A stretch of 64,000 nt of DNA from Gemmatimonadota bacterium (GCA_026705925.1 JAPOZT010000011.1:212857-276856), one strand, 5' to 3'; numbered from the stretch's first letter, positions 1,849-45,757 are shown. Numbers and translations: made by a program. Notes: generated by a model not told the origin, from the letters alone.

Positions 1849-3948
1849 CTAGTTGCTAAAAGCATTCGAGGAGATTCGCAAGTCAAACTGCCTGCAATAG
1901 AGGATGATATAGTCGTAAGAGTCTATATCCTTGCCCGATGGGGGTGTAAACGTACTCGTAAAACTCGTCATACCTGTAACTTCACCGAAACTGCGCGCAG
2001 TGCTGGGTAAAGTTTCCCCCACTGCCCAGTCGATGCTCGCTTTCTCGGAAAGAGCCAACCACGTATCGGGGGCGGTGCTCCTGAAACCGGTTATGGTCAG
2101 CTTGAGTTGCCCACCGGCACCTTCACTTAAAGTCACACTCCCAGCAGCTGAATAACTTCCCGAAATCGTAGCCGTTCGGCTCCTCAACATCGGCGGTGGT
2201 GGCGGTGGCGGCGTCGGTGCCGTCACCGTCAGTGTCGCCATGCCGGACTTGCCGTCCACCGATGCCCTTATCGTCGTCGAACCTGCACTCTTACCCGTTG
2301 CCAACCCGGAGGAGCTGATCGTTGCTTTCGATGTATCACTGCTCGTCCAGGTAAAGGTCTTGCCCGAAATCACCGTGCTGTCCGATTCAAAGGCCATCGC
2401 GGAGAACTGCTGCGTCTCCCCTTCTTCGATCGATGGGGACGATGGAGACACGGTGACCCGGTCCACTACCGGGGGCGGAGGAGGAGGTGGCTCGGTCACG
2501 GTCAACATCGCCGTGCCGGACTTGCCGTCCACCATCGCTGTAATCGTTGTGGAACCGGCTTCCATTGCCGATGCCAGACCTGACGACGAGTTGATCGTCG
2601 CGACCGTCGTGTTGCTGCTCGACCACGTAAAGGTCTTGCCCGTGATCTCCATGTCGTCCGCGTCAAAGGCTGTCGCGGTGAACTGCTGCATCTCCCCTTC
2701 TTCTATCGTCGCGGTCATGGGCTCCACGGCAACCCGAACAACCTCCGGCGGTTCGGCAACCGTGACGGTTACCGGATCGGAAGTCGTTTCTTCCGTCATG
2801 GCGGTAATGTCCGCCATACCCGCGCCGACCGCGGTAACCAGCCCCGTCGTATCAACGGTCGCCACCCCAATGTCGTCGCTCGACCACGATATAGTCGCGC
2901 CACCGATCATGGTCCCGTCTGCAGTCCGGGCGACGGCCATGAGCTGAAGCGTTCCGCCGATTTCGAGCATTGCAGGCATGGCGTCCACAATCTCGACACT
3001 GTCTACCATCGGCGCCGATTCCGCCACGGTGACCGTCGCAGGCATGCTCGTCACGTCATTCCCTGTGGCCGTTATCATGGCCGTACCGGCGGCGACGGCC
3101 GTTACCATCCCGGATCCATCCACCGTGGCGACTTCCGGATCATCGCTCATCCAGGTGAATTCCACGTCATCAACCACCATGCCGTCGGCCGTCATGGCAA
3201 CGGCCGTGAACTGGAACATGCCTCCGACCATGATCATCATGGAAGCCGGACGCACCGTCACGGTGGCCACCACCGGCTCGGGCGGCGGCGGTTCGGCCAC
3301 GTTGATCGTTACCGGCGAACTCGAAATACCATCCGCCGTGGCGCGGACCATGGCCGAACCGGCGTCGACGGCCGTGGCCACGCCGGCGGAAGTGATGGTC
3401 ACTACGCTGGTGTCGCTGCTCGCCCAGATGATACTGACATCACTGCGGATCGCGCCGCCTGCCGTCCGGGCCGTTGCCGTAAAAGTGACCATTTCCCCAA
3501 CCATCAACTCCTGGGTCGAGGAAGGAGAGACCGTGACGTTGGCCACGGCGGCCACGGTGACCGTGATCGTCACCGCCGCACTCGAAACGCCGTTCCCCGT
3601 CGCCCGGATGGTGGCCGTTCCGGCGGCCACGGCCGTGACAACCCCGTTGTTGATGGTAGCCACGGCGGTATTGCTGCTCGACCAGGTAAAACTGACACCG
3701 CTGATCACGGTGCCGTCGGAAGCCTTGGCGGTCGCGACAAATCGTTGTGTCCCTCCTGCTTGCAGCGTCGCCGTGCTCGGACTGACTTCGACTACGGAGA
3801 CCGTCGGCGCGGGCGGCGGCGTGGGCGGCGGAGATGGTGGGGTAGGGGCCGGCCGGGTCGGTGATTCGCCGCCGCCGCAACCCACGGTCCAAAGGCCACC
3901 TGCCAGGACCAGCATGGCAAAACGAGTCGTTATCAATCGGATCGACAT
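1849..3948 (-). CDS. Big_2 (bacterial Ig-like group 2) repeat surface lipoprotein
   Basis: At least six repeats of about 80 aa match the Big_2 pattern (V..V.V.P....L..G....L.A.V....), separated by Pro-rich linkers (PPPPPPP). The likely true start is MSIRLITTRFAMLVLAGGLWTVGC, a lipoprotein signal with a lipobox Cys, at 3948. The 69 codons upstream in the ORF track are Arg/Lys-rich with no signal peptide and are probably not translated. Confidence 0.75.
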   Translation of the reverse strand: MSIRLITTRFAMLVLAGGLWTVGCGGGESPTRPAPTPPSPPPTPPPAPTVSVVEVSPSTATLQAGGTQRFVATAKASDGTVISGVSFTWSSSNTAVATINNGVVTAVAAGTATIRATGNGVSSAAVTITVTVAAVANVTVSPSSTQELMVGEMVTFTATARTAGGAIRSDVSIIWASSDTSVVTITSAGVATAVDAGSAMVRATADGISSSPVTINVAEPPPPEPVVATVTVRPASMMIMVGGMFQFTAVAMTADGMVVDDVEFTWMSDDPEVATVDGSGMVTAVAAGTAMITATGNDVTSMPATVTVAESAPMVDSVEIVDAMPAMLEIGGTLQLMAVARTADGTMIGGATISWSSDDIGVATVDTTGLVTAVGAGMADITAMTEETTSDPVTVTVAEPPEVVRVAVEPMTATIEEGEMQQFTATAFDADDMEITGKTFTWSSSNTTVATINSSSGLASAMEAGSTTITAMVDGKSGTAMLTVTEPPPPPPPVVDRVTVSPSSPSIEEGETQQFSAMAFESDSTVISGKTFTWTSSDTSKATISSSGLATGKSAGSTTIRASVDGKSGMATLTVTAPTPPPPPPPMLRSRTATISGSYSAAGSVTLSEGAGGQLKLTITGFRSTAPDTWLALSEKASIDWAVGETLPSTARSFGEVTGMTSFTSTFTPPSGKDIDSYDYIILYCRQFDLRISSNAFSN

Positions 3949-23755: not shown

Positions 23756-25108
23756 ATGTACCGGACCCTTTTCTGGTTCCTCCTCCCCCTCGTCATCACC
23801 GAACTGATCTACGAACTGGGCATCCAGGTCATCAACGGCGGCATCGCCCGTGTGCCCCGGCCCACCGAAACCCTGGCCGCGTACGGTATTGCCTGGGGGC
23901 TGACGTCTTTCCTGACCGGCACCGTCTCCCAGACCCGGCAGATGTCCATGGTCCTCGTCCGGGACCGGGCGACCTTCCACACCGTGCTTCGATGCGTCGC
24001 CGGTTTCGGTGGTGTGCACTTTCTCATCCTTGGGTGTCTGGCGTTTACACCGGTGGGACTATGGGTGATCGACGAGCTTCACGCCGTGGACCCGATCCTC
24101 GGCGGCACGGTGCGCAGCGCGCTCGGACTCCTGCTGCCCATACCGCTGATCGTGGGCATCACGAGGTTCCTGTCGGGTCTGCTGTTGCGGGTGAGACGGA
24201 CCGACATCATCAGTTATGCCATGATGGCGGGCATCAGCATGAGCGTGGTGTCCGTGTTCCTGTTCCTCCCGACGCCGACCGTCCAGGCCGATCCCATATT
24301 GCTGCCGGTGGCCGCGACCTACTTCGGCGTCCTGACGGAATTGGTTGTGATCATCTATGGCTACCGGCGATTCGTCCGGCGGACACTGAAGCGGTCGAGC
24401 GGGGAAATCGTAAGCGAGGAAATCGAAGGGGGACGAGCGGCCGGGCAGGATGCGGCCGGCGAACCGGTCTCCCGGAGACAGCACCCGCTGACCGCCGCCT
24501 ACGTACTGCGGTTCTATTGGCCCCTGGCCGTAACGATCGGCATACAGGCCTTGAGCCGGCCCATCATCAACCTGTTCGTCGCCCGGGGCGCGGACGGCAC
24601 GGAATCCCTGGCCGTGCTCACCATCGTGTACGCCCTTGCGCATCTGCCCTACGGGTGGCTGAACGAACTCAAGAACCTGCCGCCCGCCTTTCAGCGACAG
24701 GACCCGGAAGGCCGGATCATCCGACGGTTCACGGCCATCTGCGGTCTGATTTCCTTTGGGACCATGGTCCTGATGTTCTGGACCCCGGTGAGGTTCTTCC
24801 TGCTGGAGTCCCTGATCGGCGTGGATCACGATTTCGCCGTGCGCTGCACCGTGCCGCTGATCATCTTTTCCTTTTTTCCCCTCGCCGTCACGATCCGGTC
24901 CTATCTCCACGGGATCGCGCTGCGGGACCATCGGACAGGCGCGATCGCACCGAGCGGACCCGCCCGGGCCGGCGCGATCGTCATCGTCGTGAACGTACTC
25001 GCGCTCTTCGATCTGCACGGGGCGATCCGCGGCGTGGCCGCCCTCTACAGTGGGTTTGTCACGGAAACGATCGTGGTCCGGTGGCGCATGGGCAGAAGGC
25101 GCGGCTAG
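23756..25108 (+). CDS. polytopic inner-membrane protein (MATE/MOP flippase-like, about 12 TM)
   Basis: The 450-aa protein has about 12 hydrophobic segments in two halves separated by a charged loop (GEIVSEEIEGGRAAGQDAAGE). No specific family motif was recognised. Confidence 0.5.
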   Translation: MYRTLFWFLLPLVITELIYELGIQVINGGIARVPRPTETLAAYGIAWGLTSFLTGTVSQTRQMSMVLVRDRATFHTVLRCVAGFGGVHFLILGCLAFTPVGLWVIDELHAVDPILGGTVRSALGLLLPIPLIVGITRFLSGLLLRVRRTDIISYAMMAGISMSVVSVFLFLPTPTVQADPILLPVAATYFGVLTELVVIIYGYRRFVRRTLKRSSGEIVSEEIEGGRAAGQDAAGEPVSRRQHPLTAAYVLRFYWPLAVTIGIQALSRPIINLFVARGADGTESLAVLTIVYALAHLPYGWLNELKNLPPAFQRQDPEGRIIRRFTAICGLISFGTMVLMFWTPVRFFLLESLIGVDHDFAVRCTVPLIIFSFFPLAVTIRSYLHGIALRDHRTGAIAPSGPARAGAIVIVVNVLALFDLHGAIRGVAALYSGFVTETIVVRWRMGRRRG

Positions 25109-26367: not shown

Positions 26368-26503
26368 GAGTTGCTCCTTTGCATCTTGGCTAGGATGAAT
26401 CTTGGCTGGGATTAACTGGTATGGGGTGTGCAGACACGGTATGGAGGCCGTGGGAAAGCGTCAAGGAAAGAACAGGTCAGTCCGCCTAAGTTGTCCAATC
26501 ACA

Positions 26504-26515
26504 CCTGTATTTAGG
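26504..26515. repeat. left copy of the 12-bp direct repeat CCTGTATTTAGG bracketing the low-GC island
   Basis: This copy matches 11 of 12 positions with CCTGTATTTAAG at 30901-30912. It lies at the GC-content transition on the left side of the island. Confidence 0.45.
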
Positions 26516-26702
26516 ATGCAAAAAGTTGGGTGTTTGTCACAATACAGGATGATTAGGGGTACATCTTGACATGGATGTGATTAACTTGTTCCTTCGTTTT
26601 AGATTATCTCTGCAACATACTACTTTATACATAACGAGCCTTTCGTTAGTGCCAGGAAAGGCATGGTTATCTACATGTTCACCACGCAGACAGGAACGAT
26701 AG

Positions 26703-27806
26703 TTGAAACTTCCTACCTACGAAGAAATCTCGAGCGACGAGAAGCAATTGGAAGTTCGGGAGTGGCCGCCTAATGAGTCACTTTTTGTCGTAGGACCACC
26801 GGGATCAGGTAAGACAGTATTGGCGGTTTTACGCGCTGAAATGGTATCTGAGTGGGCAGAAGAAAAAGATGTTATACTTGTAACCTACAACCGTATGCTA
26901 AGAAGGCTACTGGATTTGCTAGATAGAAGCGGTGTGAATGCGTCAACCATGCACAGTTTTGTATGGAATCATTATACCCATGTTACTAAGGAGGATGTGC
27001 CTACGCTACAAACAAACTCCTATGTTTATAATTGGAAAAACATGATAAGTCACCTAAGTCAATCAAGTGTGTCTTCCTCCCTCTCTTGTTTAATTGTAGA
27101 CGAAGGACAGGATCTTCCCGTCGACTTCTTTAGATACACTGCTAGATTTGTCGCCAAAACTCTCACAGTCTTTGCCGACCAAGATCAGGCTATTGGCGAT
27201 CGGCACACAACTCTTGAACAAATCAAGGGGGCTACAGGCTTAGATGACCCTATTATCCTACAAAACAACCATCGGAATACACCAGAAGTGGCAAGGGTTG
27301 CTGAGCACTTTCACAGCGGACTCTTGCCGGCTGCTAAGGTATCCCGAAATTCCATTGGAGAGGTGCCACGATTAGTTAAGACACGAGACATCGATCATGT
27401 GGCAGTACTAGTTTCGAATTGGCGACAAACTCGGGGAGGATCGGTAGGCGTGATTGTTGTACGAAATGAAACGGGAATTGCACTCCATCAAAAACTCAAG
27501 GATCGGCTTTCAGGAACGCGTGTTGACATCTACAGGAACGACGATAAAAACGAAAATAGTATAAATGTTCTAAATGACGGAGTGACGGTTCTAAATAAGG
27601 AATCGGTTAAAGGACAGGAGTTCGACACAGTATTCATCTTGGAAATCGAGCACCTCATTCCCATCGCCAACGATACAGACCGTCGAGCTATGTATATGAT
27701 GTGCTCCCGAGCTCGAGATCATTTGTTCCTTATTTATGGTCCAACTGAACTCACGGTTCCAGCTGCGGAAGCACTACCAGGACCGGAAATCCTTGAACGA
27801 GTTTAA
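26703..27806 (+). CDS. compact UvrD/PcrA-like superfamily 1 helicase/ATPase (367 aa)
   Basis: SF1 motifs are present: Walker A GPPGSGKT, motif II IVDEGQD, motif IV-like NHRNT, motif V VKGQEFDTVFI, and motif VI MCSRARDHLFLIY. The start is a TTG codon. The GC content of about 42% contrasts with about 65% in the flanking DNA. Confidence 0.75.
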   Translation: MKLPTYEEISSDEKQLEVREWPPNESLFVVGPPGSGKTVLAVLRAEMVSEWAEEKDVILVTYNRMLRRLLDLLDRSGVNASTMHSFVWNHYTHVTKEDVPTLQTNSYVYNWKNMISHLSQSSVSSSLSCLIVDEGQDLPVDFFRYTARFVAKTLTVFADQDQAIGDRHTTLEQIKGATGLDDPIILQNNHRNTPEVARVAEHFHSGLLPAAKVSRNSIGEVPRLVKTRDIDHVAVLVSNWRQTRGGSVGVIVVRNETGIALHQKLKDRLSGTRVDIYRNDDKNENSINVLNDGVTVLNKESVKGQEFDTVFILEIEHLIPIANDTDRRAMYMMCSRARDHLFLIYGPTELTVPAAEALPGPEILERV

Positions 27807-27808
27807 CT

Positions 27809-30019
27809 ATGGATAAAGACGTACAGACTTCTATGAGATTCGACAGAGTTGCTGAAACGAATTCTAATAGTGAGTTCGACGGTAATAATGGCCCTTGGTT
27901 TGGTTTGAGTTTGCATCATCGCCGGCTGTTAGATTCCCTTCAAGACGGCTGGTTGCGTCCTCCTGGCGAAAAGACCGGTCTGATATTAGGTAACTCAGCG
28001 TTCGTTAGCGAGCAGTTTGAGACGGGGAAACACACTATCATAGTTCAATTGAAGTTCGTTGCAGATAAACTTCCTAGCCTCGATGTGTTCGTCCTGCGTG
28101 GTGAACGTTGGTTTCCTTGCAAGCTAATGGAAATTGAATCATCTGATCATACTGTTTATTGGCCGGGTTCCCTCCCTACTTTCGCAGTTTCTGCCTTGTA
28201 TGTTAAAAACGATCAGGAACGTATACGGCTCAGTACCTTAGCCCGTCAGTTTTCAAACTTGTCTCTACCCATAGACGTAACAGTCAACACTACAGAATCC
28301 ATTTCACCACAACACCAACACGAACCCCCAGAATCGAATAGAAGGATCGACATCCCGCACGATGAGGATGCGATCCGCGGTGCCATGAGCATGGCTGTGT
28401 GGGCTGTACCTAAAACCGACCCATGGTTGGAACTACTAGTGACAAGTCTGTCCTTTGATAATAAAAAGACCACTAAATCGGCTGCCAACGTGGAGGCGAA
28501 TTGGTGGAGAGTTCCACCATGGAGTGATTGGCCCAACAATGTCAAAATTAAAGATCTTCAGGATGGTTTTTGGCGGTCTGCAATTGAAGTCTTCAGTGAA
28601 CATTCTGGACAAAGTGGTGTTAGTCCGTACGTACTCGCCGAGAAAATCAAATCTAAGGCTGATAGTGCTTACTGTACCGACTACTCGTCGACTGATACCT
28701 CTGCGTGGCTAGACAATACAAACCAAATACTTCGAGCGGATTCTGTTTTTAGTGTAATAAACTGGCAACATAATCCTGTTGGGAAGGCTATCCAACTAGT
28801 ACTGACACGTCCCGAGCCAGACAACTTCAAGACCTGGCGTCGAGATATACACGACCTTCCCCCGATAGTGTGGTGGTCTGCAGCTGTTCTGTGTGGACTC
28901 AAACATGGTTACAAGAGGTTGAATCTGTGTTTTCGAGGTGAAGTACCACTCCAAGAGGCACTTACAATACATGCATTGCAGTCATGTAATTTGTCCTTGA
29001 AAAACATGAAATGGCCATCTTTGACAGGTGATCCAAATTGGCGCAGGAATGGAGATGGATTTGAACTGCTTTGGGGAAACGCGGTTATTGCACAAAAACA
29101 AGGAAATGCACGTAGCCGATGGTATGTAGCTGACTTCAAAAAAGATCTGATCCGGTCTAGCGCAGTGACATTAGCGAAGGAATTGAATTGGACTTGTCTA
29201 CGCCAAACACTCCAGCTTAAGTCTGGTCAGATTGCCTATTCTGGTACAGGCGAAATCGAGATCCGAGACCATAGACTCGCTATTCATGGAGAAATAACCT
29301 TGGAAATGCCATCGAACGTGGACATTCGCTCTGAATTGGATGTCGAATCCTTTCGTCATCTAGTCGCGGTGTCTGCCGGACAGCTTCCAGATCCGCCACA
29401 GGTAGTCGCTCAGGTATCTATATCAAAAAACCACATCATCACCGGACTCAATTACGTACCAGATTTTGTAAGTGAGACCGAAGAAGCAGAACTCGTCGCG
29501 AAAATAGATTCGAACGTATGGCTAACTGATATAAAAAGGCGCGTACAACATTATGGTTGGCGATACGATTATGCTAATCGGCAGGTAAATCCAGCTATGC
29601 GTATTGACGATCTGCCAGATTGGGCTATTGAAATCGCCCATCGACTAGTTGATCAGAAGCTTGTCAAACAGATGCCGGATCAGTTGATAGTCAATGAATA
29701 CAAAGGCAGCCAAGGAATTGGTAGGCACATTGACAGTGAACCGTACTTTGCCGATAACATTGCCATGATCAGCTTACTTGAATCTTGGGAGATGGTTTTT
29801 CGACAGAAATCCAACAGTAAAATCAAGCATAATATAATGTTAGACAACAGGAGCGTGGCAATTATGAGCGGGCCTGCTCGCTACCTGTGGACTCATGAAA
29901 TACCGAGCAGGAAATACGAACCGGGTCCCGAATTGCTCGATGGGAAGAGATCAAGGAAGTTACGAAAACGTCGTCTTTCGCTCACATTCAGGAAAGTACT
30001 TCACGAGATTCTTCGGTGA
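27809..30019 (+). CDS. fusion protein: N-terminal region of about 540 aa with no recognisable family, plus a C-terminal AlkB-type 2OG-Fe(II) dioxygenase domain
   Basis: The C-terminal 200 aa align motif by motif with E. coli AlkB. RRVQHYGWRYDY matches the AlkB N-terminal lid. LIVNEYKGSQGIGRHIDSEP matches the AlkB Fe-binding HxD motif. ARYLWTHEI matches the distal His. RRLSLTFRKV matches RYNLTFRQ, the 2OG-binding Arg pair. The gene starts 3 nt after the helicase stop, indicating translational coupling. Confidence 0.75.
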   Translation: MDKDVQTSMRFDRVAETNSNSEFDGNNGPWFGLSLHHRRLLDSLQDGWLRPPGEKTGLILGNSAFVSEQFETGKHTIIVQLKFVADKLPSLDVFVLRGERWFPCKLMEIESSDHTVYWPGSLPTFAVSALYVKNDQERIRLSTLARQFSNLSLPIDVTVNTTESISPQHQHEPPESNRRIDIPHDEDAIRGAMSMAVWAVPKTDPWLELLVTSLSFDNKKTTKSAANVEANWWRVPPWSDWPNNVKIKDLQDGFWRSAIEVFSEHSGQSGVSPYVLAEKIKSKADSAYCTDYSSTDTSAWLDNTNQILRADSVFSVINWQHNPVGKAIQLVLTRPEPDNFKTWRRDIHDLPPIVWWSAAVLCGLKHGYKRLNLCFRGEVPLQEALTIHALQSCNLSLKNMKWPSLTGDPNWRRNGDGFELLWGNAVIAQKQGNARSRWYVADFKKDLIRSSAVTLAKELNWTCLRQTLQLKSGQIAYSGTGEIEIRDHRLAIHGEITLEMPSNVDIRSELDVESFRHLVAVSAGQLPDPPQVVAQVSISKNHIITGLNYVPDFVSETEEAELVAKIDSNVWLTDIKRRVQHYGWRYDYANRQVNPAMRIDDLPDWAIEIAHRLVDQKLVKQMPDQLIVNEYKGSQGIGRHIDSEPYFADNIAMISLLESWEMVFRQKSNSKIKHNIMLDNRSVAIMSGPARYLWTHEIPSRKYEPGPELLDGKRSRKLRKRRLSLTFRKVLHEILR

Positions 30020-30058
30020 ATATCAAAGTACTTATCTCAGAGTAAATACGTTGTTGAG

Positions 30059-30898
30059 ATGGAGTATTGGTTGACTACACAACTGCCCCGATGGTTGGTC
30101 TCTCTCCGATCCAGCGTAGTCGTCGAGCCTGTCAGGAACGATCCCCGTACAGTTGAGCATACTGTTTTTGGTATCGATCTCAAGACTGCACAAAGAAAAG
30201 TCTTGGCTAATGGACAGGCAAACTTCGACAAGTCGTGGAACGGTCTCTCCCCACACGATCGTGCACTCGTATATGCCTACTTAAATCAACTAGGTCACCT
30301 AGAAGAACTGGTCGAGGCTTTTCGACAGCTATTTAAAGACCAAGAACCTCCTAACGAAACTATACTCATAGATATCGGTTGCGGACCATGTACAGGAGGT
30401 CTTGCATTCACCAGTGTTTATTCTAACACAGCACGATTTGATTATATCGGAGTGGATCGTTCGCAAACTATGCGAGAACTGGGTGAGCTAATGGCAGCTA
30501 CCGCTACACAAATGAATGAGGTAAATCGGCAGTGGATTGCAGACATTACATCTGCAAAATGGAACAGTGCCCCTGGCTGGCGACCGATTATTGTTGTCGT
30601 ATCGTACCTGCTAGCGAGCCCGACATTGATCCCTGGACAACTCGTTACTCAACTCGAAACTCTTCTACGGAAAATTGGCAATGGTCCGGTTACTGTACTT
30701 TATACCAACTCAAATCAACCTATCGCCAATCTTAAGTTCCCGGAGTTTAACGATTCACTAAATAAAATCGGTTTCAAGTTATATGCTGACGACGAAGGCG
30801 AGATTGTTGTCTCACGTAGGGATGGATCCACAAAACGCAATTTCAGATATGCCTTGTTCCATCGCCCTTTGAAACGAATTCTAAAGCTAGATAACTAG
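30059..30898 (+). CDS. class I SAM-dependent methyltransferase (substrate unknown)
   Basis: Motif I ILIDIGCGPCTGG (E/DxGxGxG) is followed by an acidic post-I residue (YIGVDRS). There is no (D/N)PP(Y/F) motif, so it is not a typical N6A/N4C DNA methyltransferase. The GC content is low and the gene is in an operon with the AlkB fusion. Confidence 0.7.
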   Translation: MEYWLTTQLPRWLVSLRSSVVVEPVRNDPRTVEHTVFGIDLKTAQRKVLANGQANFDKSWNGLSPHDRALVYAYLNQLGHLEELVEAFRQLFKDQEPPNETILIDIGCGPCTGGLAFTSVYSNTARFDYIGVDRSQTMRELGELMAATATQMNEVNRQWIADITSAKWNSAPGWRPIIVVVSYLLASPTLIPGQLVTQLETLLRKIGNGPVTVLYTNSNQPIANLKFPEFNDSLNKIGFKLYADDEGEIVVSRRDGSTKRNFRYALFHRPLKRILKLDN

Positions 30899-30900
30899 GT

Positions 30901-30912
30901 CCTGTATTTAAG
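30901..30912. repeat. right copy of the 12-bp direct repeat (CCTGTATTTAAG), 3 nt after the methyltransferase stop
   Basis: Read directly from the sequence, as for the left copy. Confidence 0.45.
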
Positions 30913-31050
30913 TCTCTCCTCTAGTGGAATATAGTAGCATTACGGTAGTGCTTCGGTATCTGGTTTTCTGTGTTTTCCAACACTCAACATGCAAAGTGCA
31001 ATGTCTAGCGCGGATTGGATTAATTACTCATTAACATAAGGGGTTAGATC

Positions 31051-32091
31051 ATGTTCTACCGTATAGTTTCTATACTTATATTCGTTTTGCTAGCCCCACG
31101 TTTTCACGCCCAGGAAGTCGATCCGCCCTTCGGCGATCCGGCATTCATCTCGCCCGACGCCCGCCTGGAGATGGTGTTCAATGAAGGCCTGGCCCTGACG
31201 GAGAGTCCCGCCGAGGGTCCGGACGGGATGATCTACTTCAGCGACATCACCTTCACCACGTCCGCAGGTACGGATGGCATACAGGCCGGGCACATTTGGC
31301 GCTATGACCCGAAAACGGGCGAGACCACTATTTATCGTTCGCCGAGCGGGATGTCCAACGGCCTCAAATTCGACGCCCAGGACCGGCTCATCGCCGCGGA
31401 AGGCGCCGACCAGGGCGGACGGCGGGTGACAAGGACGGATATGGAGACGGGGAAGGCCTACATTATCGCCCACGAATACGAAGGGCGGCCGTTCAACGCC
31501 CCGAATGACGTGGCCATCGACGAGCGGGGGCGGGTCTACTTCAGCGATCCCAAGTACATCGGCAATGAATCGGTGGAACAGCCCGTGATGGCGGTGTACC
31601 GCATCGATACCGACGGTTCGATCCACCGGATCATCACCGACGCGGGCAAGCCGAACGGCGTGGTGGTCTCTCCCGACCAGCAGACCCTCTACGTGGTCAG
31701 CAACGACAACGGTTCCATCGACCTGGGCAAGATCACCCTGGACATCCCCGTGCACAAGGGACGCATGGCCCTGCTGGCCTACGACCTGCACGAGGACGGA
31801 TCCGCCACCTTCCGGAGCGTACTCGTGGACTACCTGCCCGAGGACGGGCCCGACGGCCTGGTCGTCGACGTCGAAGGCAACCTGTACGTGTCCGAGCGCG
31901 ACGTGACCCGGCCGGGCATCGCCATACGCGCACCGGACGGGACCGAAAAGGCCTTCATCCCCACCGGCGTGCTGCCCACCAACGTGGGCTTCGGACGGGG
32001 CGAGAACAGCAAGATCCTGTACATCACCGCGGGTACAGGGCTCTACCGGATCCCCGTGATGAAGGACGGCTATCATCTTCCGCGGGAGTAA
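31051..32091 (+). CDS. SMP-30/gluconolactonase/LRE-like six-bladed beta-propeller hydrolase, secreted
   Basis: A signal peptide (MFYRIVSILIFVLLAPRFHA) is present. Repeated motifs include GPDGMIYFSD, PNDVAIDERGRVYFSDP, PNGVVVSPD and GPDGLVVDVEGNLYVSE, which are typical of gluconolactonase/regucalcin. Confidence 0.75.
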   Translation: MFYRIVSILIFVLLAPRFHAQEVDPPFGDPAFISPDARLEMVFNEGLALTESPAEGPDGMIYFSDITFTTSAGTDGIQAGHIWRYDPKTGETTIYRSPSGMSNGLKFDAQDRLIAAEGADQGGRRVTRTDMETGKAYIIAHEYEGRPFNAPNDVAIDERGRVYFSDPKYIGNESVEQPVMAVYRIDTDGSIHRIITDAGKPNGVVVSPDQQTLYVVSNDNGSIDLGKITLDIPVHKGRMALLAYDLHEDGSATFRSVLVDYLPEDGPDGLVVDVEGNLYVSERDVTRPGIAIRAPDGTEKAFIPTGVLPTNVGFGRGENSKILYITAGTGLYRIPVMKDGYHLPRE

Positions 32092-33831: not shown

Positions 33832-33956
33832 GGGACCGGCGCCAACCCCGAGGCAGGATCCTTCTGGCAAGTTTCCCGGCTGTCCTTTCCTGACGATCCT
33901 TTTCCGACTATACTGTAAGCAATGTGCCCGTTCTTGAAACAACCGGCAAATTTGGC

Positions 33957-33974
33957 GGGTCTAAACTTAGACCC
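33957..33974. promoter_or_regulatory. perfect 18-bp palindrome GGGTCTAAACTTAGACCC upstream of the small ORF/ABC permease cluster
   Basis: Read directly from the sequence. The imperfect inverted repeat CGGAAATTCC...GGGATTTTCCG lies nearby at about 33981-34008. Confidence 0.45.
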
Positions 33975-34039
33975 ACTTCCGGAAATTCCATATCGGGATT
34001 TTCCGTAGTGGGGTATTCCGCCCCTTAATCAAGGAGAAC

Positions 34040-34162
34040 ATGATGAGCACATTTGGAATGACCGAGTTAATCCTGATTTTCATTGCGTTATTCTTAGCAC
34101 TGCCCATCTGGTTTACCTATAAAATTATCAGCCACAGATTACGGAATAGAAACAAACCTTGA
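34040..34162 (+). CDS. small ORF (40 aa, single predicted TM helix) missing from the ORF track
   Basis: A near-perfect Shine-Dalgarno sequence AAGGAG lies 6 nt upstream of ATGATG. The peptide is MMSTFGMTELILIFIALFLALPIWFTYKIISHRLRNRNKP. Its AT-rich codons (TTA, ATT, AAA) are atypical for the host. It is followed by the hairpin GGAATCC-N9-GGATTCC at 34163-34185. Confidence 0.45.
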   Translation: MMSTFGMTELILIFIALFLALPIWFTYKIISHRLRNRNKP

Positions 34163-34260
34163 GGAATCCATTTAAAGAGGATTCCGTATAAAACGGGCTC
34201 ATCCAGCGTTCATTTTCCAACCCTTCCGGGACAAAACCACCTCGAAACGGTTCCCCCTCA

Positions 34261-36669
34261 ATGTTCAAGAACTACCTCACCACCGCACTGCGAAACCTGC
34301 TCAGGCACAAGGGCTATTCGGCGATCAACGTCCTCGGGCTGGCCATCGGCATTGCCTGCTGCGTGCTGATCCTGCTCTACGTGCAGGACGAACTCAGCTA
34401 CGACCAGTATCACGAGAAGAAAGACCGGATATACCGCGTGGCGGAATCCGCGACGGTAGCGGGAAGGTCCATCGAAGCCGCAGTTACGCCCCCGCCCTGG
34501 GCCCCGGTGCTGGCAAAAGACTATCCTGTCATCGAGGCGTATACCCGGATCAAGCCTCCGGCCTCCCGGTGGCTGATTCGGTACAAAGAAAAGCGGTTTT
34601 ACGAGCGGTATTTCGCCTTCGTGGATTCATCGTTCTTCGACATTTTCACCTTCCCCCTGGTTCAGGGCGATGCGAAGACGGTCCTGGCCGACCCCCATAC
34701 CGTGGTGCTGTCGGAATCCATGGCCGACAAGTACTTCGGGGACGAGAACCCGATCGGCGAGGTCATTACGGGCGATGACCTTTATGAGTTCACGGTTACC
34801 GGCGTCATGCGGGACATGCCGAAGAACACTCATTTTCATTTCGACTTTCTGGCCTCCTATGCCTCCCTGGCGCCGCACAGGCTCTACGATGAACCGTCCA
34901 CGATGCAGGACCAGGGCTTCAGCCACGACCTGTTTACCTATTTACTTCTACGGGAAGGAAACGCACCCGAAGACCTGGAGCGGGAATTTCCCGGATTCCT
35001 GGACAAGTACCTTGGCGAACTGCTCACGTCCGTGGGCATCGAGGCCCGGCCCTTCCTGCAGCCCATCACGGATATCCACCTCCATTCCAACATGGAAGCC
35101 GAAATCAGGGCGAACAGCAGTATCCGGTACGTGTATATCTTTACCTGCCTGGCCGTCTTTGTCCTGCTGATCGCCTGCGTGAATTTCGTGAACCTTTCCA
35201 CCGCCCGTTCCGCCCGCAGAGCGCAGGAAGTCGGCATGCGGAAGGTGCTCGGCGCCTTTCGGAATCAACTGATCAAACAGTTTACGGGCGAGTCGATCCT
35301 GGTCTCCCTGATCGCCCTGTTCATCGCACTGGGCCTGGTTCACCTGCTCCTGCCGCAGTTCAACCTGTTCTCCGGCAAGGCGCTGGCGATGGACTACCAG
35401 TCTACCTGGCTGGTACCAACCCTGGCGGGCATTGCCCTGGTGACGGGGATCGCCGCGGGTGGATATCCCGCCTTCATCCTGTCCTCCTTCAGGCCGGTGG
35501 CCGTACTGACCGGCGCGCTCAAGGCGGGGGCGTCTCATTCGCTCCTCAGGAAAGTCCTGATCACCTTCCAGTTCGGTATTTCTATCCTCATGATCATTGG
35601 CACGCTCGTAGTCCTCGATCAGCTGGAATACATGCAGAACAAGCCCCTGGGCTTCGATGAAGACGACCTGGTCGTCGTTCGCCTGCCGGATGAGGAAGCC
35701 CTTAATGGCTATCCCGCCTACAGGGACGCCTTGATGCAGTATCCTGAAATCCTTAACGTGAGTACGGCGAACAGCATACCCGGGGGCCAGACGAGCCTCA
35801 ACCTGGTTACGCCGGAAGGGGTGCAGGAGGATGAAAGCCCGGTGTACCAGATGGTCCAGGCGGACTTCGGCTACATAGAAACACTCGGCATCGAGATGGC
35901 GTCGGGACGGACGTTCTCCCGGGCCTTCGGAGCGGATTCCACCGCCTGCCTGATCAACGAGGCGGCCGTCCGGACCCTGGGATGGGAAGACCCGATCGGC
36001 AGAACCTTCAGGTTAACCGGAGAGGATGATGACCCGCCCCTGAGCGTCATCGGCGTCATGGCGGATTTTCACGTCCAGTCGCTGCGCCAACCCATAACGC
36101 CGCTCATGGTGCGACTGGATGAAGAACCCGCTTCATTTATGGTCGTCAGGATACAGGGCACGAACGTATCACGTGGAGTTGAAACACTCCAGGAACAGTG
36201 GCGGAGTACGTATCCGAACCATCCCGCCCTGGATTACTCGTTTCTCGATGACGACCTCAGGCAACTATACCAGGACGAACGACGGCTCGGTTCCGTGTTC
36301 ATCGCCGGTGCGGTGCTTTCTATCCTGATCGCCTGCCTGGGACTGCTGGGGCTGTCGTCCTTCATGGCGGAGCAACGGACCCGGGAGATCGGTGTGCGGA
36401 AGGTCCTCGGCGCGACGGTATCGAACGTGATCCTGCTATTGTCGAGGGACTTCACCAGGCTGGTCCTGCTGGCCTTCGTGCTCGGAGCGCCGGCGGGTTA
36501 CTACGCCATGCACTCGTGGCTGGAAGACTTCCCATACCGTATCGAACCGGGCCTGGGGGTGTTCCTTTTCGCGGGTGTCGCGGCGTTGTCGGTCGCCTGG
36601 CTGACGGTGGGATACCAGTCGTATAAGGCCGCGGCCACCAACCCGGCGGAAGCGGTGCATGCGGAGTGA
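34261..36669 (+). CDS. FtsX-like ABC transporter permease (about 800 aa; two MacB/FtsX permease modules with a large periplasmic domain)
   Basis: The N-terminal TM helix is followed by a large periplasmic domain and a C-terminal FtsX 4-TM module. There is an internal duplication of the TM module. No ATPase domain is fused. Confidence 0.8.
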   Translation: MFKNYLTTALRNLLRHKGYSAINVLGLAIGIACCVLILLYVQDELSYDQYHEKKDRIYRVAESATVAGRSIEAAVTPPPWAPVLAKDYPVIEAYTRIKPPASRWLIRYKEKRFYERYFAFVDSSFFDIFTFPLVQGDAKTVLADPHTVVLSESMADKYFGDENPIGEVITGDDLYEFTVTGVMRDMPKNTHFHFDFLASYASLAPHRLYDEPSTMQDQGFSHDLFTYLLLREGNAPEDLEREFPGFLDKYLGELLTSVGIEARPFLQPITDIHLHSNMEAEIRANSSIRYVYIFTCLAVFVLLIACVNFVNLSTARSARRAQEVGMRKVLGAFRNQLIKQFTGESILVSLIALFIALGLVHLLLPQFNLFSGKALAMDYQSTWLVPTLAGIALVTGIAAGGYPAFILSSFRPVAVLTGALKAGASHSLLRKVLITFQFGISILMIIGTLVVLDQLEYMQNKPLGFDEDDLVVVRLPDEEALNGYPAYRDALMQYPEILNVSTANSIPGGQTSLNLVTPEGVQEDESPVYQMVQADFGYIETLGIEMASGRTFSRAFGADSTACLINEAAVRTLGWEDPIGRTFRLTGEDDDPPLSVIGVMADFHVQSLRQPITPLMVRLDEEPASFMVVRIQGTNVSRGVETLQEQWRSTYPNHPALDYSFLDDDLRQLYQDERRLGSVFIAGAVLSILIACLGLLGLSSFMAEQRTREIGVRKVLGATVSNVILLLSRDFTRLVLLAFVLGAPAGYYAMHSWLEDFPYRIEPGLGVFLFAGVAALSVAWLTVGYQSYKAAATNPAEAVHAE

Positions 36670-36678
36670 AACGGCACC

Positions 36679-39090
36679 ATGATCCGAAACTACCTGACCG
36701 TCGCCTTGCGAAACCTGCGCAGGCACAAGGGCTATTCGGCTATTAACGTCCTCGGGCTGGCCATCGGCATGGCTAGCTGCGTGCTGATCCTGCTCTACGT
36801 GCAGGACGAACTCAGCTACGACCAGCATCATGAGAAAAAGGACCGGATCTACCGCATCGCGGAATCCGCTGTGATAACGGACCGGCCGATCGAAGCGGCC
36901 GTCACGCCCCCGTCCTGGGCGCCGGTCCTTGCGCGGGACTATCCGGAAATCGAGCTGTACACCCGGATCAAGCCGCCGGGCTCCCGCTGGCTTATCCGGT
37001 ATGAGGAAAACCGGTTCTACGAGCGATACTTTATTTTCGCGGACTCGTCGGTCTTCGACATCTTCACCATCCCGCTCGTACAGGGTAACCCCGCCACCGC
37101 CCTGGTCGAACCGCATACGGTGGTGCTGTCCGAATCCATGGCCGGCAAGTACTTCGGAGACGAGAACCCGATCGGGAAGGTGATCACGGGGGACGACCTC
37201 TACGAGTTCACCGTGACCGGCATCATGCGGGACATGCCGCGGACCTCTCACTTCCATTTCGACTTCCTGGCTTCCTTCGCCACGCTGGCGCCGAATCAAC
37301 TGTACTACAGCGATCCGGACGACATTCAGAACGGCGGGTTCAACCACGATTTGTACACCTATCTGCTGCTCCGGGAAGGCGCCACGCGCGAGGAAATGGA
37401 ATCCAGGTTCCGCCCATTCCTGGACAAATACCTCGGCGAAACGCTCCAATCCGCGGGCATTGAGGCCAACCCCTACCTGCAGCCGCTCACGGAGATCTAC
37501 CTGCATTCCAACATCGAAGCCGAGCTGCGGCCCAACAGCGACATCCGTTACGTCTATATCTTCACGTCCCTGGCCGTCTTCATTCTCGTCATCGCCTGCG
37601 TGAATTTCATGAACCTGTCCACCGCCCGGTCCGCCCGCAGGGCACAGGAGGTCGGGATCCGGAAGGTCCTGGGCGCACAGCGGATCCAGTTGATCCGGCA
37701 GTTTATCGGCGAATCGATACTGCTCGCGCTGCTCGCGCTGATCATCGCCCTCGCACTGGTGCACCTGCTGCTTCCGCAATTCAACCTGTTGTCGGGCAAG
37801 GACCTGGTCATGGACTACGGGTCGACCTGGCTGGTGCCGGCCCTGGCGGTCATCACGCTATTCGTCGGTTTCGCCGCCGGTGGATATCCCGCTTTCCTGC
37901 TCTCTTCCTTCAGGCCGGTGGCCGTGCTGACCGGCGCGCTGAAGACCGGCGCCTCCCATTCGGTACTCAGGAAGGTGCTGATCACCTTCCAGTTCAGCGT
38001 CTCGATCCTCATGATGGTGGGCACGGGAGTGGTCCTCAACCAGCTGGAGTTCATGCAGAACAAGCGGCTGGGATTCGAAAGCGATCACCTGGCGGTCGTC
38101 CGCATGCCGGACGAAGCAGCCCTCCGGGGATATGGGGCCTACAAAAACGCGGTGTTGCAGTATCCCGAGATCCTGAAGGTGAGCACTTCGAGCAGCGTAC
38201 CCGGCGCACAGACCAGCCTGAACCTGTTGACGCCCGAGGGCTTGCCGCCCGACCAGAGCCCGGTTTTCCAGACGATCTGGGGGGACTTCGACTTCGCGGA
38301 AACCATGGCATTCGAGCTGGCCGCCGGACGTACGTTCGACACCGCCTTCGCCACCGATTCATCGGCCTGCCTGATCAACGAGACCGCGGTCCGCGCCCTG
38401 GGTTGGGAGAATGCGATCGACAAGACCTTCCGCTTCGCTGGTTCGCCGGAAACCGCCCCGTCGCACCGGGTGATCGGCGTCATGAGGGACTTCCACCAGC
38501 ACTCGCTGCGCCAACCCATCGAACCCCTGATGATCCTGTTCAACGCGCCCGGCCCTTACATGGTCATCCGGATGCGGGGGGAAGACCCGCGGCGGGGGAT
38601 GGAGATCCTGCAGGACCAATGGCGGCAGACCTATCCGAACCACCCGGCCATGGAGATCTCGTTTCTCGACGCGAACCTTGAGCAACTGTACTCCGCCGAA
38701 CAACGGCTGGGCAGCGTCTTCATCGCCGGCGCCGCGCTTTCCATGCTGATCGCCTGCCTGGGGCTCCTGGGCCTTTCGTCCTACATGGCCGAACAGCGGA
38801 CCCGGGAGATCGGGATCCGAAAAGTGCTCGGTGCGACGATATCGAACGTGATCGTGCTATTGTCCGCGGATTTTACGAAACTGGTCCTGCTGGCCTTTTT
38901 GATCGGCGCCCCCGTGGGATACCTGGCCATGGGCGCGTGGCTCGAGGGCTTCCCTTACCGCGTCGATCTGGGTATCGGCGCTTTCGTGCTGGCCGGTCTG
39001 GCCGCGCTGATCATTTCCTGGCTGACGGTGGGATACCAGGCGTTCAAGGCGGCCACGGCCAACCCGGCGGACGCGGTACATGGGGAGTGA
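36679..39090 (+). CDS. FtsX-like ABC transporter permease, tandem paralog
   Basis: It shares about 75% identity with 34261..36669 over its full length, beginning with the same N-terminus M(F/I)(K/R)NYLT(T/V)ALRNL.RHKGYSAINVLGLAIG. Confidence 0.8.
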   Translation: MIRNYLTVALRNLRRHKGYSAINVLGLAIGMASCVLILLYVQDELSYDQHHEKKDRIYRIAESAVITDRPIEAAVTPPSWAPVLARDYPEIELYTRIKPPGSRWLIRYEENRFYERYFIFADSSVFDIFTIPLVQGNPATALVEPHTVVLSESMAGKYFGDENPIGKVITGDDLYEFTVTGIMRDMPRTSHFHFDFLASFATLAPNQLYYSDPDDIQNGGFNHDLYTYLLLREGATREEMESRFRPFLDKYLGETLQSAGIEANPYLQPLTEIYLHSNIEAELRPNSDIRYVYIFTSLAVFILVIACVNFMNLSTARSARRAQEVGIRKVLGAQRIQLIRQFIGESILLALLALIIALALVHLLLPQFNLLSGKDLVMDYGSTWLVPALAVITLFVGFAAGGYPAFLLSSFRPVAVLTGALKTGASHSVLRKVLITFQFSVSILMMVGTGVVLNQLEFMQNKRLGFESDHLAVVRMPDEAALRGYGAYKNAVLQYPEILKVSTSSSVPGAQTSLNLLTPEGLPPDQSPVFQTIWGDFDFAETMAFELAAGRTFDTAFATDSSACLINETAVRALGWENAIDKTFRFAGSPETAPSHRVIGVMRDFHQHSLRQPIEPLMILFNAPGPYMVIRMRGEDPRRGMEILQDQWRQTYPNHPAMEISFLDANLEQLYSAEQRLGSVFIAGAALSMLIACLGLLGLSSYMAEQRTREIGIRKVLGATISNVIVLLSADFTKLVLLAFLIGAPVGYLAMGAWLEGFPYRVDLGIGAFVLAGLAALIISWLTVGYQAFKAATANPADAVHGE

Positions 39091-39159: not shown

Positions 39160-39348
39160 ATGAACGCAAACGAACTTCGCAGATGGCTCAGGAAACAAGG
39201 TTGTACGTTTCACACGCATAAGGGCGGGAGTGGTCACGTGACGGTTCGTTTGCGGGATCGGAAAACCCAGTTGCCTATGCATGGAGGAAGCAAGGAACTT
39301 GGGCGGAAACTGGTGGCAAAGATCAAGAAGGATCTGGGGTTGAACTGA
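39160..39348 (+). CDS. hicA: HicA-family mRNA interferase toxin
   Basis: The 62-aa protein has the YcfA/HicA-like pattern ...HKGGSGHVTV...HGGSKELGRKLVAKIKKDLGL. Confidence 0.75.
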   Translation: MNANELRRWLRKQGCTFHTHKGGSGHVTVRLRDRKTQLPMHGGSKELGRKLVAKIKKDLGLN

Positions 39349-39761
39349 TGCTTCAATATCCGGTATTACTCGAAGACGACGATGATTCCGTATTGGTTAC
39401 GTCACCGGACTTTCCGGAACTTACGACGTTCGGTATGGACCGGGAGGAGGCAATCGCCCGGGCGGTCGACGCGCTGGAGGAGGCGATCGCAGCCCGCGTA
39501 CATGATGGCCTGGATATCCCACTGCCGTCCAGGGGACGTGACACCGCCAAGTTACCGACGCTCACCGCCGTCAAGGTGATGTTGTACCGGGGTATGCGGG
39601 AACAGGGCATAGGCAAGGCGGAACTGGCCCGGCGCCTCGGCTGGCACCTTCCGCAGGTGGACCGGGTATTGGACGTGCAGCACAACTCCCGCATGGACCA
39701 GATGGACGCGGCCATGGGCGCTATAGGGCGGCACCTTTATGTACGTGATTCACTTCACTAG
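39348..39761 (+). CDS. hicB: HicB-family antitoxin (RNase H-like fold plus C-terminal HTH)
   Basis: Its start overlaps the hicA stop. The N-terminal YPVLLEDDDDSVLVTSPDFPELTTFGMDREEAIARAVDALEEAI matches UPF0150/HicB, and there is a C-terminal helix-turn-helix (GIGKAELARRLGW). Confidence 0.75.
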   Translation: MLQYPVLLEDDDDSVLVTSPDFPELTTFGMDREEAIARAVDALEEAIAARVHDGLDIPLPSRGRDTAKLPTLTAVKVMLYRGMREQGIGKAELARRLGWHLPQVDRVLDVQHNSRMDQMDAAMGAIGRHLYVRDSLH

Positions 39762-45134: not shown

Positions 45135-45410
45135 TTATCCCACCGTAAACTGCAGCTTTTTACCGATAGCTTTGGCGTATTTTCCGAGGGTTGACAACCG
45201 GATGTCTTCGGCATGATTCTCAATTCTGGATATAGCAGACTTCCTGGTTTTCAACCTGCGTGCCACCTCTTCCTGGGTAAGTCCGGCATCCTCTCTCGCC
45301 TGTCGAAGTAGTACACCGATCTTGAACTCCTGATATCCTTCATCGTATCTCTCGGCAAATTCCGCATCCTTGACCTTGCGATATGCCACGTATTCGCTCA
45401 AGTCGCTCAT
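45135..45410 (-). CDS. XRE-family HTH antitoxin (HigA-like)
   Basis: The 91-aa protein has the [26 protein letters not shown]. It lies immediately downstream of the toxin on the same strand, and the region has lower GC content. Confidence 0.7.
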
Positions 45411-45484
45411 CGTCTCTTCCTCATGAAGTAATCCTGTCTTCTCTTCTCGGCTAGCCGGATGTCCGATCTCGGTGTTTTTCGAGT

Positions 45485-45757
45485 CTACTTCGCGAATGCG
45501 TGATCTATAATTACGAGATTCGAACCGTCGAAAAAGGAAAGAAGACGGAATGTGTCACGTGCAATGTCTACGCGGATTTCCCAGATATCATCTGAATCGA
45601 CCAGTTTCTGAAAATACCGACGAGGTACGAAATGCAACTCTTCAATGAGTCTCAGAACCCAGGTGATCTTGGCTGCCTGTTTTGGGTCGAGCGCATCCAG
45701 AAAGTCAACGACAGGACACTGACCCGATTCAGTACGATAGAAATGGACAGTTCTCAT
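45485..45757 (-). CDS. type II toxin, RelE/ParE superfamily (Gp49-like/HigB-like)
   Basis: The 90-aa protein has the pattern [23 protein letters not shown]...[33 protein letters not shown], typical of phage Gp49-like killer proteins. It is paired with the downstream XRE antitoxin. Confidence 0.65.

Follow-up and report, generated by a model that had tools for sequence, protein, structure and literature searches.

Eukaryotic ALKBH8 is a bifunctional tRNA wobble-uridine methyltransferase/hydroxylase with an RRM and a zinc finger; it carries a fused, Trm9-like methyltransferase and takes mcm5U to mchm5U. ALKBH8 acts after its partner methyltransferase, and a bacterial ALKBH8-like group, of which the R. 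denitrificans ALKBH8-like 'RD' protein has been studied, has had no known physiological substrate since it was defined (PMC4051686). Here we analyze a 64-kb stretch of DNA (JAPOZT010000011.1, positions 212857-276856; hereafter the window) from a Gemmatimonadota metagenome-assembled genome. Three genes named A, B and C, all on the + strand at window positions 26703-30898, encode a superfamily 1 (SF1) helicase, a multidomain protein ending in an ALKBH8-type oxygenase, and an S-adenosylmethionine (SAM) methyltransferase. This cassette appears to be an undescribed system, predicted to methylate and then oxidize nucleic acid. With a probability of about one half, we read it as a conserved, horizontally exchanged, conflict-associated operon that would modify single-stranded nucleic acid and is built around a methyltransferase/ALKBH8-type oxygenase core.

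The cassette resembles eukaryotic ALKBH8 and the bacterial 'group 2B' ALKBH8-like AlkBs in its oxygenase domain and in the obligatory coupling of that domain to a SAM methyltransferase. The AlkB domain is the only part that matches ALKBH8. The cassette gives no RRM or zinc-finger match in Pfam, and its methyltransferase is a separate gene of Rsm22/METTL17-like rather than Trm9-like type. Unlike in ALKBH8, the AlkB domain is fused to DarT-like and ADP-ribosylglycohydrolase (ARH)-like folds, is accompanied by an SF1 helicase, and belongs to a mobile, fast-evolving unit. DarT-DarG and DarT1-NADAR come close in another respect: the N-terminal fold of B is DarT-like, and the same didomain is found with NADAR elsewhere. 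In addition, the DarT-DarG logic of a writer and an enzymatic eraser acting on a base of single-stranded nucleic acid can be likened to that of the cassette. However, DarT-DarG relies on ADP-ribosylation, whereas the conserved enzymes of the cassette imply methylation and oxidation; the cassette has no sequence-level DarT match and no conserved DarT catalytic residues, and neither a macro (DarG) domain nor a NADAR domain was found in A, B or C.

Other described systems share single components with the cassette. Both folds of the ADP-ribosyltransferase (ART)-ARH pairs (Tre1-Tri1, Listeria ART-ARH) and of the ARG-centred systems (PMC9503650) are united here in one polypeptide, but without the canonical active-site residues, and the trio has no phosphatase, Nudix, WYL regulator or chaperone gene. 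Since the components differ, identity with the ARG-centred system of section 3.8 of PMC9503650 was rejected. The combination of an SF1/UvrD-like ATPase with a SAM methyltransferase recalls type I/III restriction-modification (R-M), BREX, DISARM, MADS and Gabija GajB, but the cassette lacks a nuclease, a PglZ, PLD or GajA partner, and the DPPY motif. For Gabija in particular, the GajB profile matches are partial and no GajA-like gene occurs in the cassette or among its conserved neighbors. To our knowledge, none of these systems includes an AlkB oxygenase. The top matches in PADLOC-DB v2.0.0 are C3a187 for A, C3a159 for C and CARF_2OG for the AlkB domain, and C3a187 (NERD+UvrD) and C3a159 (methyltransferase) are type III-CRISPR-associated clusters (PMC6546367). 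The likeness to such accessory clusters extends to a methyltransferase-AlkB pair that lies beside RAMP genes on pAQ6 (see below), but the cassette has no CARF domain, the trio occurs independently of CRISPR loci, and in the window it is immediately flanked by aminotransferase, SGL and SSF genes. None of the PADLOC system models fits, all matches being isolated (C3a187, GajB, reverse transcriptase (RT)-associated helicase, CARF_2OG, C3a159). The literature searched on AlkB combined with methyltransferase, helicase, defence, DarT or ARH gave no description of the cassette, although an earlier one may exist. The original prediction, made from the DNA alone, had likewise recognized neither a repair operon nor a defence system.

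The genes of the cassette and the domains of B are as follows (aa, amino acids).

26703..27806, + strand: gene A, TTG start, 367 aa, compact UvrD-like SF1 helicase/ATPase
27809..30019, + strand: gene B, 736 aa, four domains (DarT-like fold, ARH-like fold, beta domain, AlkB)
27887..28324, + strand: B residues 27-172, DarT/Tpt1-like ADP-ribosyltransferase fold, probably non-catalytic
28340..29008, + strand: B residues 178-400, all-alpha ARH-like fold, probably non-catalytic
29006..29428, + strand: B residues 400-540, beta-rich domain
29441..30016, + strand: B residues 545-736, intact ALKBH8-type Fe(II)/2-oxoglutarate (2OG) oxygenase (AlkB) domain
30059..30898, + strand: gene C, 279 aa, class I SAM methyltransferase, Rsm22/METTL17-like, with a helical N-terminal extension

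The three open reading frames (ORFs) were confirmed in the order A-B-C, as originally predicted; the spacers, first given as 3 and 40 nt, measure 2 nt from the stop of A to the start of B and 39 nt from B to C. The NCBI version of C is 275 aa long (OXH02_04145, 100% identical).

At least 553 places in one-genome-per-species bacterial collections encode a relative of B, and its full-length homologues form at least 120 clusters. The best 80 of these loci span ~9 phyla with a patchy distribution. They include Acidobacteriota, Gamma-, Alpha- and Betaproteobacteria, Gemmatimonadota, Nitrospira, Chloroflexota, Myxococcota, Bdellovibrionales, Planctomycetes and Entotheonella; cultured carriers are found in Pseudomonas, Lysobacter, Paraburkholderia, Variovorax, Rugamonas, Curvibacter and Enhygromyxa. 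The helicase adjoins B in 77/80 loci and the methyltransferase in ~73/80, the exceptions being mostly contig ends or degraded copies. All 60 strict trios are co-directional, 56 of them in the order C-A-B and four in the order A-B-C seen in the window, and the identities of their A, B and C proteins to those of the window correlate (r ~0.9). Moreover, a metagenome search seeded with the methyltransferase revealed A and B downstream in 10/10 loci with enough sequence. A lack of co-occurrence elsewhere had been named beforehand as the result that would count against the original prediction; the trio recurs as a unit across genomes, and the prediction survives on this point. The catalytic motifs of all three enzymes are kept in 72-80 loci, and the trio has no conserved fourth gene. 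In most loci the cassette has a lower guanine-cytosine (GC) content than its flanks, the mean difference being 5 points. In ~70 loci, the immediate neighbors are heterogeneous, ~10% of them being defence genes (three Ppl, type I and III R-M methyltransferases, AAA_21 ATPases).

Two of the enzymatic parts also travel together in other settings. C-family methyltransferases (hidden Markov model (HMM) E values of 4e-20 to 3e-30) directly precede stand-alone AlkBs in 6/6 distant contexts examined, and these AlkBs are 40-44% identical to the AlkB domain of B. On pAQ5 and pAQ6 of Picosynechococcus PCC 7002, an AlkB directly follows a homologue of C (BLAST 4e-17; hhalign 98.8%), and both pairs are preceded by a KTI12/AAA_33-WYL protein. 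The neighbors of the pAQ5 cassette (L082) are a reverse transcriptase, an Abi protein and a restriction enzyme, while the pAQ6 cassette (L096) adjoins a RAMP (type III CRISPR) gene. An AlkB also adjoins each of four more distant members of this methyltransferase subfamily, where the partners are RT and KTI12 (L102), HSDR_N (L104) or none (L103), or a second AlkB (L105). A 5.2-Mb genome (L105:5238-7653) has the arrangement AlkB-methyltransferase-AlkB, with two AlkB paralogues, and a DUF433/PIN toxin-antitoxin-like pair lies ~2.2 kb upstream. As judged by these homologies, the evolutionary core is the methyltransferase and AlkB pair, and the accessory partners vary. Among the hallmarks of conflict systems, PMC9503650 lists a conserved core whose accessory partners are displaced. 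The ALKBH8-like oxygenase is thus obligatorily paired with one methyltransferase family, in the trio as well as in the two-gene versions, from which the substrate of the AlkB should be the product of the methyltransferase.

The arrangement of KTI12/AAA_33-WYL, methyltransferase and AlkB recurs (pAQ5, pAQ6 and L102) and is possibly a separate undescribed RT-associated system; ahead of it, pAQ5 and L102 encode a reverse transcriptase and a hypothetical protein, and pAQ6 encodes a TPR protein. The hypothetical proteins beside the stand-alone AlkBs of pAQ5 and pTB4 were considered as split sub-domains of B and rejected after four pairings had been tested.

The C-terminal part of B matches 2OG-FeII_Oxy_2 (PF13532; 4.8e-23, 82.8 bits for a cut-off of 31.2), which is the sole Pfam match of the protein. 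Residues H640, D642 and H696 (HxD...H), N629 and Y631 (NxY), and R722 and R728 (RxxxxxR) are conserved in 80/80 loci, in line with the intact AlkB active site noticed originally, and the domain is predicted from these motifs to be active. Its closest solved structure is human ALKBH8 (3thp, 9.7e-21), followed by S. pombe P8A3.02c, chains labelled 'DNA N6-methyl adenine demethylase', which we take to be ALKBH4/NMAD-1-like, and ALKBH6. It is also 41% identical to the stand-alone AlkB of R. denitrificans plasmid pTB4. The E. coli-type AlkB equivalog (TIGR00568), for its part, gives 17.5 bits for a cut-off of 231. The AlkB-type dioxygenase first recognized is therefore real, but the premise that it erases 1-meA and 3-meC like the E. 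coli enzyme is weakened: because the oxygenase is ALKBH8-type and not E. coli AlkB-type, methylation followed by oxidation gains weight.

The only Pfam match of C is to Rsm22 (2.5e-4, 21 bits, below the 23-bit cut-off). Its AlphaFold2 model has a predicted local distance difference test (pLDDT) score of 92 and shows a Rossmann methyltransferase fold, for which the top structure by TM-score is METTL17 (8csp_7, TMq 0.62), METTL17/Rsm22 being a ribosome-assembly factor. Motif I has the consensus DLGCGP.TGGLA, and reads DIGCGPCTGGLA in the window; its DxGxG is kept in 72/72 loci and D133 in 73/75. The region of motif IV reads SYLLASP, with no (D/N/S)PP(Y/F/W), so C is not a DPPY amino-methyltransferase; in keeping with this, no N6_Mtase, N6_N4_Mtase or MethyltransfD12 match was found in Pfam. 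The best PADLOC match, C3a159, has an E value of 4e-12. C is not a characterized small-molecule or rRNA methyltransferase, a possibility raised at the outset: its Rsm22 match is sub-threshold, and its best structural match is METTL17.

The helicase A has UvrD-like SF1 domains at both ends in Pfam (AAA_19, 2e-10, 41.4 bits for a cut-off of 25.1; UvrD-helicase, 26 for 23; UvrD_C_2, 27.6 for 27.4), together with Walker A (GPPGSGKT) and Walker B (DEGQ) motifs. Walker A is kept in 73/74 loci and DE(G/A)Q in 75/75. By these features A is a UvrD-like SF1 helicase, and unwinding is predicted. Its best PADLOC matches are C3a187 'NERD+UvrD' (1.4e-16) and an RT-associated NERD-helicase (3.1e-11), besides partial GajB-like matches. 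Overall, Pfam and the motifs agree with the three domain calls made before, namely an SF1 helicase, an AlkB and a class I methyltransferase without DPPY.

What had been a large unknown domain of ~540 aa is indeed fused to the AlkB, but it can now be resolved into DarT-like, ARH-like and beta domains by AlphaFold2 and Foldseek. The model of B residues 1-544 is confident (pLDDT 86.5; predicted TM-score (pTM) 0.87), and Foldseek retrieves Thermus DarT first (probability 1.00) and ARH next (0.99), with the tRNA enzyme Tpt1 among the fold matches. Boundaries of the DarT-like (~30-170) and ARH-like (~180-400) parts were assigned by size and topology. Sequence-level identification failed, so that only fold comparison identified the sub-domains: Pfam searches with 52 members of each of the DarT-like and ARH-like parts gave zero matches, as did the profile of the DarT-like part against sequences of the PDB and the hhalign comparison of the ARH-like part with real ARH, and B has no DarT match in Pfam or PADLOC. 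In the 52-member alignment of the DarT-like part, neither a His/Tyr/Glu nor an Arg/Ser/Glu set is conserved, nor is any acidic residue. In that of the ARH-like part, every canonical metal-binding acidic residue is missing and there is no invariant acidic, Thr or other polar residue. Hence B shows neither the family sequence match with catalytic Glu and NAD-binding residues expected of a DarT, nor the family match (PF03747) and acidic/Thr di-metal ligands of an ADP-ribosylglycohydrolase. The residues of the didomain that are invariant family-wide are Trp, Pro, Gly, Leu and Ala. In the beta domain, whose secondary structure comes from the model, R435, W438, A452 and F515 are invariant and D511 nearly so. 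Since no polar residue of catalytic type is conserved in the didomain, the DarT-like and ARH-like folds, together with the beta domain, are probably non-catalytic binding or targeting modules.

The didomain is nevertheless linked to ADP-ribose biology, by its fold matches, by its fusions to NADAR, DUF4326 and SLOG, and by ARH genes upstream of the module. Among 1.84 billion proteins, the N-terminal region of B has 208 representatives, nearly all in the same ~730-aa architecture; in the two exceptions, the didomain is fused to DUF4326 and NADAR or to a SLOG domain, all of them ADP-ribose-processing or sensing domains (PMC9503650). These exceptions are very large polyvalent-like proteins (L099:3258-10128, comprising P0335 and its neighbor, and P0348), with DUF4326/NADAR or a YAcAr SLOG. 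One of them adjoins a DUF7146/Toprim primase-like gene, which suggests a polyvalent mobile-element protein of conjugative-element or phage origin. In two Vicinamibacterales genomes (L004 and L008), the gene directly upstream of the module encodes a bona fide ARH. Both genes (L004:3137-4822 and L008:5113-6891; 561-592 aa) have intact GDALG, SDDT and GADTDT motifs and an extra C-terminal region; in L008, B is present while A and C are absent.

The history of the locus can be followed in related genomes. In the window, the cassette lies in a block of 4.7 kb with ~45% GC, set in DNA of ~63% GC with a sharp drop of 19 points (0.42-0.47 across ~26400-31050; 0.62-0.68 on either side), which agrees with the low-GC island first noticed. 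The same cassette order at the same site, between the aminotransferase and the SMP-30/gluconolactonase-like (SGL) gene, is found in six other assemblies (L001, L002, L007, L015, L100 and L101); among these genomes or contigs are complete long-read chromosomes and a metagenome of an Ircinia sponge. In all seven, the GC content of the cassette is 0.45-0.54 in a background of 0.61-0.66. The cassette is thus old at this locus, and a recent single insertion was rejected: the island is real, but not the fresh insertion it seemed. Its divergence is striking, with protein identities to the window of 45-82% in the cassette and 71-97% in the flanks. L007 has the closest flanks of all (87-97%), yet its cassette (46-56%) is more distant than those of L001 and L002, so the phylogenies of cassette and flanks disagree. 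At the nucleotide level, identity to the syntenic genomes is 84-91% up to ~26385-26482 and resumes at 87-91% from ~31093-31105, whereas inside the block it is 66-70% or the DNA is unalignable. These boundaries extend the block by ~45-55 nt into the SGL gene. At this fixed locus the cassette is hypervariable, through allele exchange or very fast divergence, and a recombination breakpoint may lie within the 5' end of the SGL gene (window 31051-31100). The intergenic edges of the divergent block are as follows.

26386..26702, no strand: left edge, low GC, between the divergent aminotransferase gene (start codon at 26367, - strand) and gene A
30899..31100, no strand: right edge, low GC, made up of 152 intergenic nt and the initial 45-55 nt of the SMP-30/gluconolactonase-like gene (start at 31051)

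The stretch of the SGL gene that lies inside the block probably encodes a signal peptide. In the closest relative (L100:2927-5139, 74% identity), B is broken into two ORFs of 80 and 657 aa; the contig has 3x coverage, and the break is either a sequencing frameshift or the mark of a pseudogene.

A working scheme for the conflict-associated operon can be put together from these parts. A, driven by ATP, would expose or track single-stranded RNA or single-stranded DNA (ssDNA). C would add a methyl (or methyl-ester) group, and the AlkB domain would oxidize the group placed by C, either removing it, following a write/erase logic as in DarT-DarG, or leaving a hydroxylated derivative, following the logic of ALKBH8; from the sequences, we judge these two outcomes about equally likely. 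The DarT-/ARH-like didomain and the beta domain would bind nucleic acid or an ADP-ribose-type ligand and provide targeting. As target, RNA and especially tRNA is slightly favoured over ssDNA on account of ALKBH8, METTL17, the KTI12-like partner, the fold matches of Tpt1 type and the links to type III CRISPR. The cassette probably has a role in conflicts with phages or other mobile elements, serving in phage defence or toxin-antitoxin-like growth control and not in housekeeping; hypervariability at a fixed locus, the phylogeny mismatch, low GC, patchy spread and defence-gene neighbors all favour such a role, and the toxin/immunity or anti-phage function first proposed may fall within it. In sum, we infer that C and the AlkB share a substrate, that the target is single-stranded RNA or ssDNA, that the didomain is non-catalytic and that the function lies in conflict. 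If so, methylation coupled to oxidative reversal or elaboration would be a new chemistry in bacterial immunity or toxin-antitoxin biology, and the trio would illustrate how 'dead' folds of DarT and ARH type come to serve in targeting. The cassette is open to experiment, as it is present in culturable strains of Pseudomonas, Lysobacter, Variovorax, Paraburkholderia and Curvibacter.

Several points weigh against a conflict-associated operon. Most neighbors of the trio are housekeeping genes, and the cassette contains no nuclease, membrane protein or other obvious killing effector; we know of no precedent for a methyltransferase toxin. None of 72,556 plasmids (PLSDB) and 50,697 phage records (GenBank) carries the full-length fusion, and it occurs on 1 of 2.9 million viral contigs (IMG/VR), on which grounds a plasmid or phage origin of the full fusion was rejected. 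All syntenic genomes or contigs examined in the window's lineage have the cassette, which would also fit a useful physiological function. Small-molecule enzymes are numerous among the structural neighbors of C, and the inactivity of the didomain is deduced from conservation patterns and not from residue-level structural superposition.

A bolder version, for which we claim a modest chance, is that the cassette, like the wider methyltransferase/ALKBH8-like AlkB pair, is a methyl-based analogue of DarTG. Here the methyltransferase would poison ssDNA or tRNA by methylation at the Watson-Crick face and the oxygenase would be the antidote, while sensing or targeting would fall to the helicase and a fossil DarT/ARH didomain. 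A bacterial immune or toxin-antitoxin system that works by reversible methylation of nucleic acids and oxidative demethylation would be the first of its kind, and it would give the bacterial ALKBH8-like proteins a physiological substrate.

Conversely, the cassette could be an accessory module for translational tuning through physiological hypermodification of tRNA or rRNA, in which C methylates, the ALKBH8-type domain hydroxylates and the helicase acts as RNA chaperone. ALKBH8 is the closest solved homologue of the AlkB domain, C finds METTL17/Rsm22 as its best match and many RNA methyltransferases among the others, a KTI12-like P-loop protein is present in a variant cassette, the tRNA enzyme Tpt1 is among the fold matches, and all seven syntenic genomes or contigs have kept the cassette. 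For the bacterial ALKBH8-like proteins, PMC4051686 likewise favours a role in RNA modification, yet in the same study loss of the A. tumefaciens ALKBH8-like gene left the wobble modification of tRNA-Gly(UCC) unchanged. The evolution of the cassette fits poorly as well: identities of 45-66% against 85-97% in the flanks, allele swaps incongruent with the flanks, deviant GC, patchy spread across phyla, and variable partners (RT, WYL, HSDR_N) beside Abi, R-M and CRISPR genes are all atypical of housekeeping modification genes. We therefore regard this explanation as unlikely; if correct, it would mean a new bacterial RNA modification pathway.

Less probable still is a repair or counter-modification device. 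B would reverse base adducts that invaders or competitors make on host nucleic acids: AlkB would take off alkyl groups, and a recruited ARH or the ARH/DarT-like part would take off ADP-ribose. Access would come from the helicase, and the methyltransferase would mark or protect the site after repair, in the manner of Hen1 in Pnkp/Hen1 RNA repair. Two eraser-type folds, ARH-like and AlkB, do coexist in one polypeptide, and a bona fide ARH gene stands beside the module in L004 and L008. The didomain is also fused elsewhere to the ADP-ribose-removing NADAR and DUF4326 (functions according to PMC9503650), and host ARG-centred systems that undo viral ADP-ribosylation have been predicted (PMC9503650, section 3.8). 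However, the ARH-like domain is devoid of canonical metal-binding acidic residues and of any invariant polar residue. The strict co-inheritance of methyltransferase and AlkB, which includes two-gene versions without any ADP-ribose-related domain, argues further that AlkB likely acts on the product of the methyltransferase and not on foreign damage.

An R-M-like scheme is very improbable. It would use ADP-ribosylation as a weapon: the DarT-like domain, as an active but non-canonical ADP-ribosyltransferase, would attack invader ssDNA exposed by the helicase, with methylation by C protecting the host's target bases and the AlkB and ARH-like parts correcting mistakes. The DarT-like part, however, has no conserved His/Tyr/Glu, Arg/Ser/Glu or acidic residues and no Pfam or PADLOC match to DarT, the methyltransferase-AlkB pair exists without it, and an eraser of the protective methyl mark would be self-defeating. 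Finally, an assembly chimera or decaying, functionless horizontally acquired DNA, at which the sharp 19-point GC drop might hint, can be dismissed, because the cassette occupies the same site in six other independent assemblies, complete long-read chromosomes among them, and keeps intact reading frames, with catalytic motifs conserved across 72-80 loci; the artefact that the original prediction had wished to see checked is excluded.

The surroundings of the cassette were also surveyed. Its flanking genes are ordinary: an ANKH-like membrane protein, a class V aminotransferase, the SGL gene, a sodium:solute symporter (SSF) and MacB/FtsX permeases. No tRNA gene was found in the 64-kb window, and direct or inverted repeats at the block edges are short and at chance level; mobile-element scars at the edges were rejected on these two grounds, no integrase-specific search having been made. 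Scans for promoter-like sites and terminators did not exceed the shuffled expectation, and an Rfam scan of the block for non-coding RNA gave zero matches at E up to 1. The window holds no CRISPR-like repeat array; cas genes were not systematically searched there.

The HicAB and HigBA-like pairs noted originally downstream are real. HicA (2.2e-09) and a HicB-like antitoxin lie at window 39160-39761 (+ strand), and a Gp49/HigB-like toxin (6.9e-12) with an HTH_3 antitoxin lies at 45135-45757 (- strand), each in a small GC dip. The membrane protein at 23756-25108 (+ strand) matches the eukaryote-typical ANKH (progressive ankylosis) family PF07260 (2.5e-49), and its gene is kept beside the cassette in related genomes. 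Two MacB/FtsX-type permease paralogues stand in tandem at 34261-36669 and 36679-39090 (+ strand), with 77-83% nucleotide identity, and are preceded by a 429-nt intergenic region of low GC (33832-34260). At the far left of the window, GC is also low (0.49) at 1001-2000, and ~2198-3315 contains repeats with a period of ~273 nt, which probably encode a repeat-domain protein.

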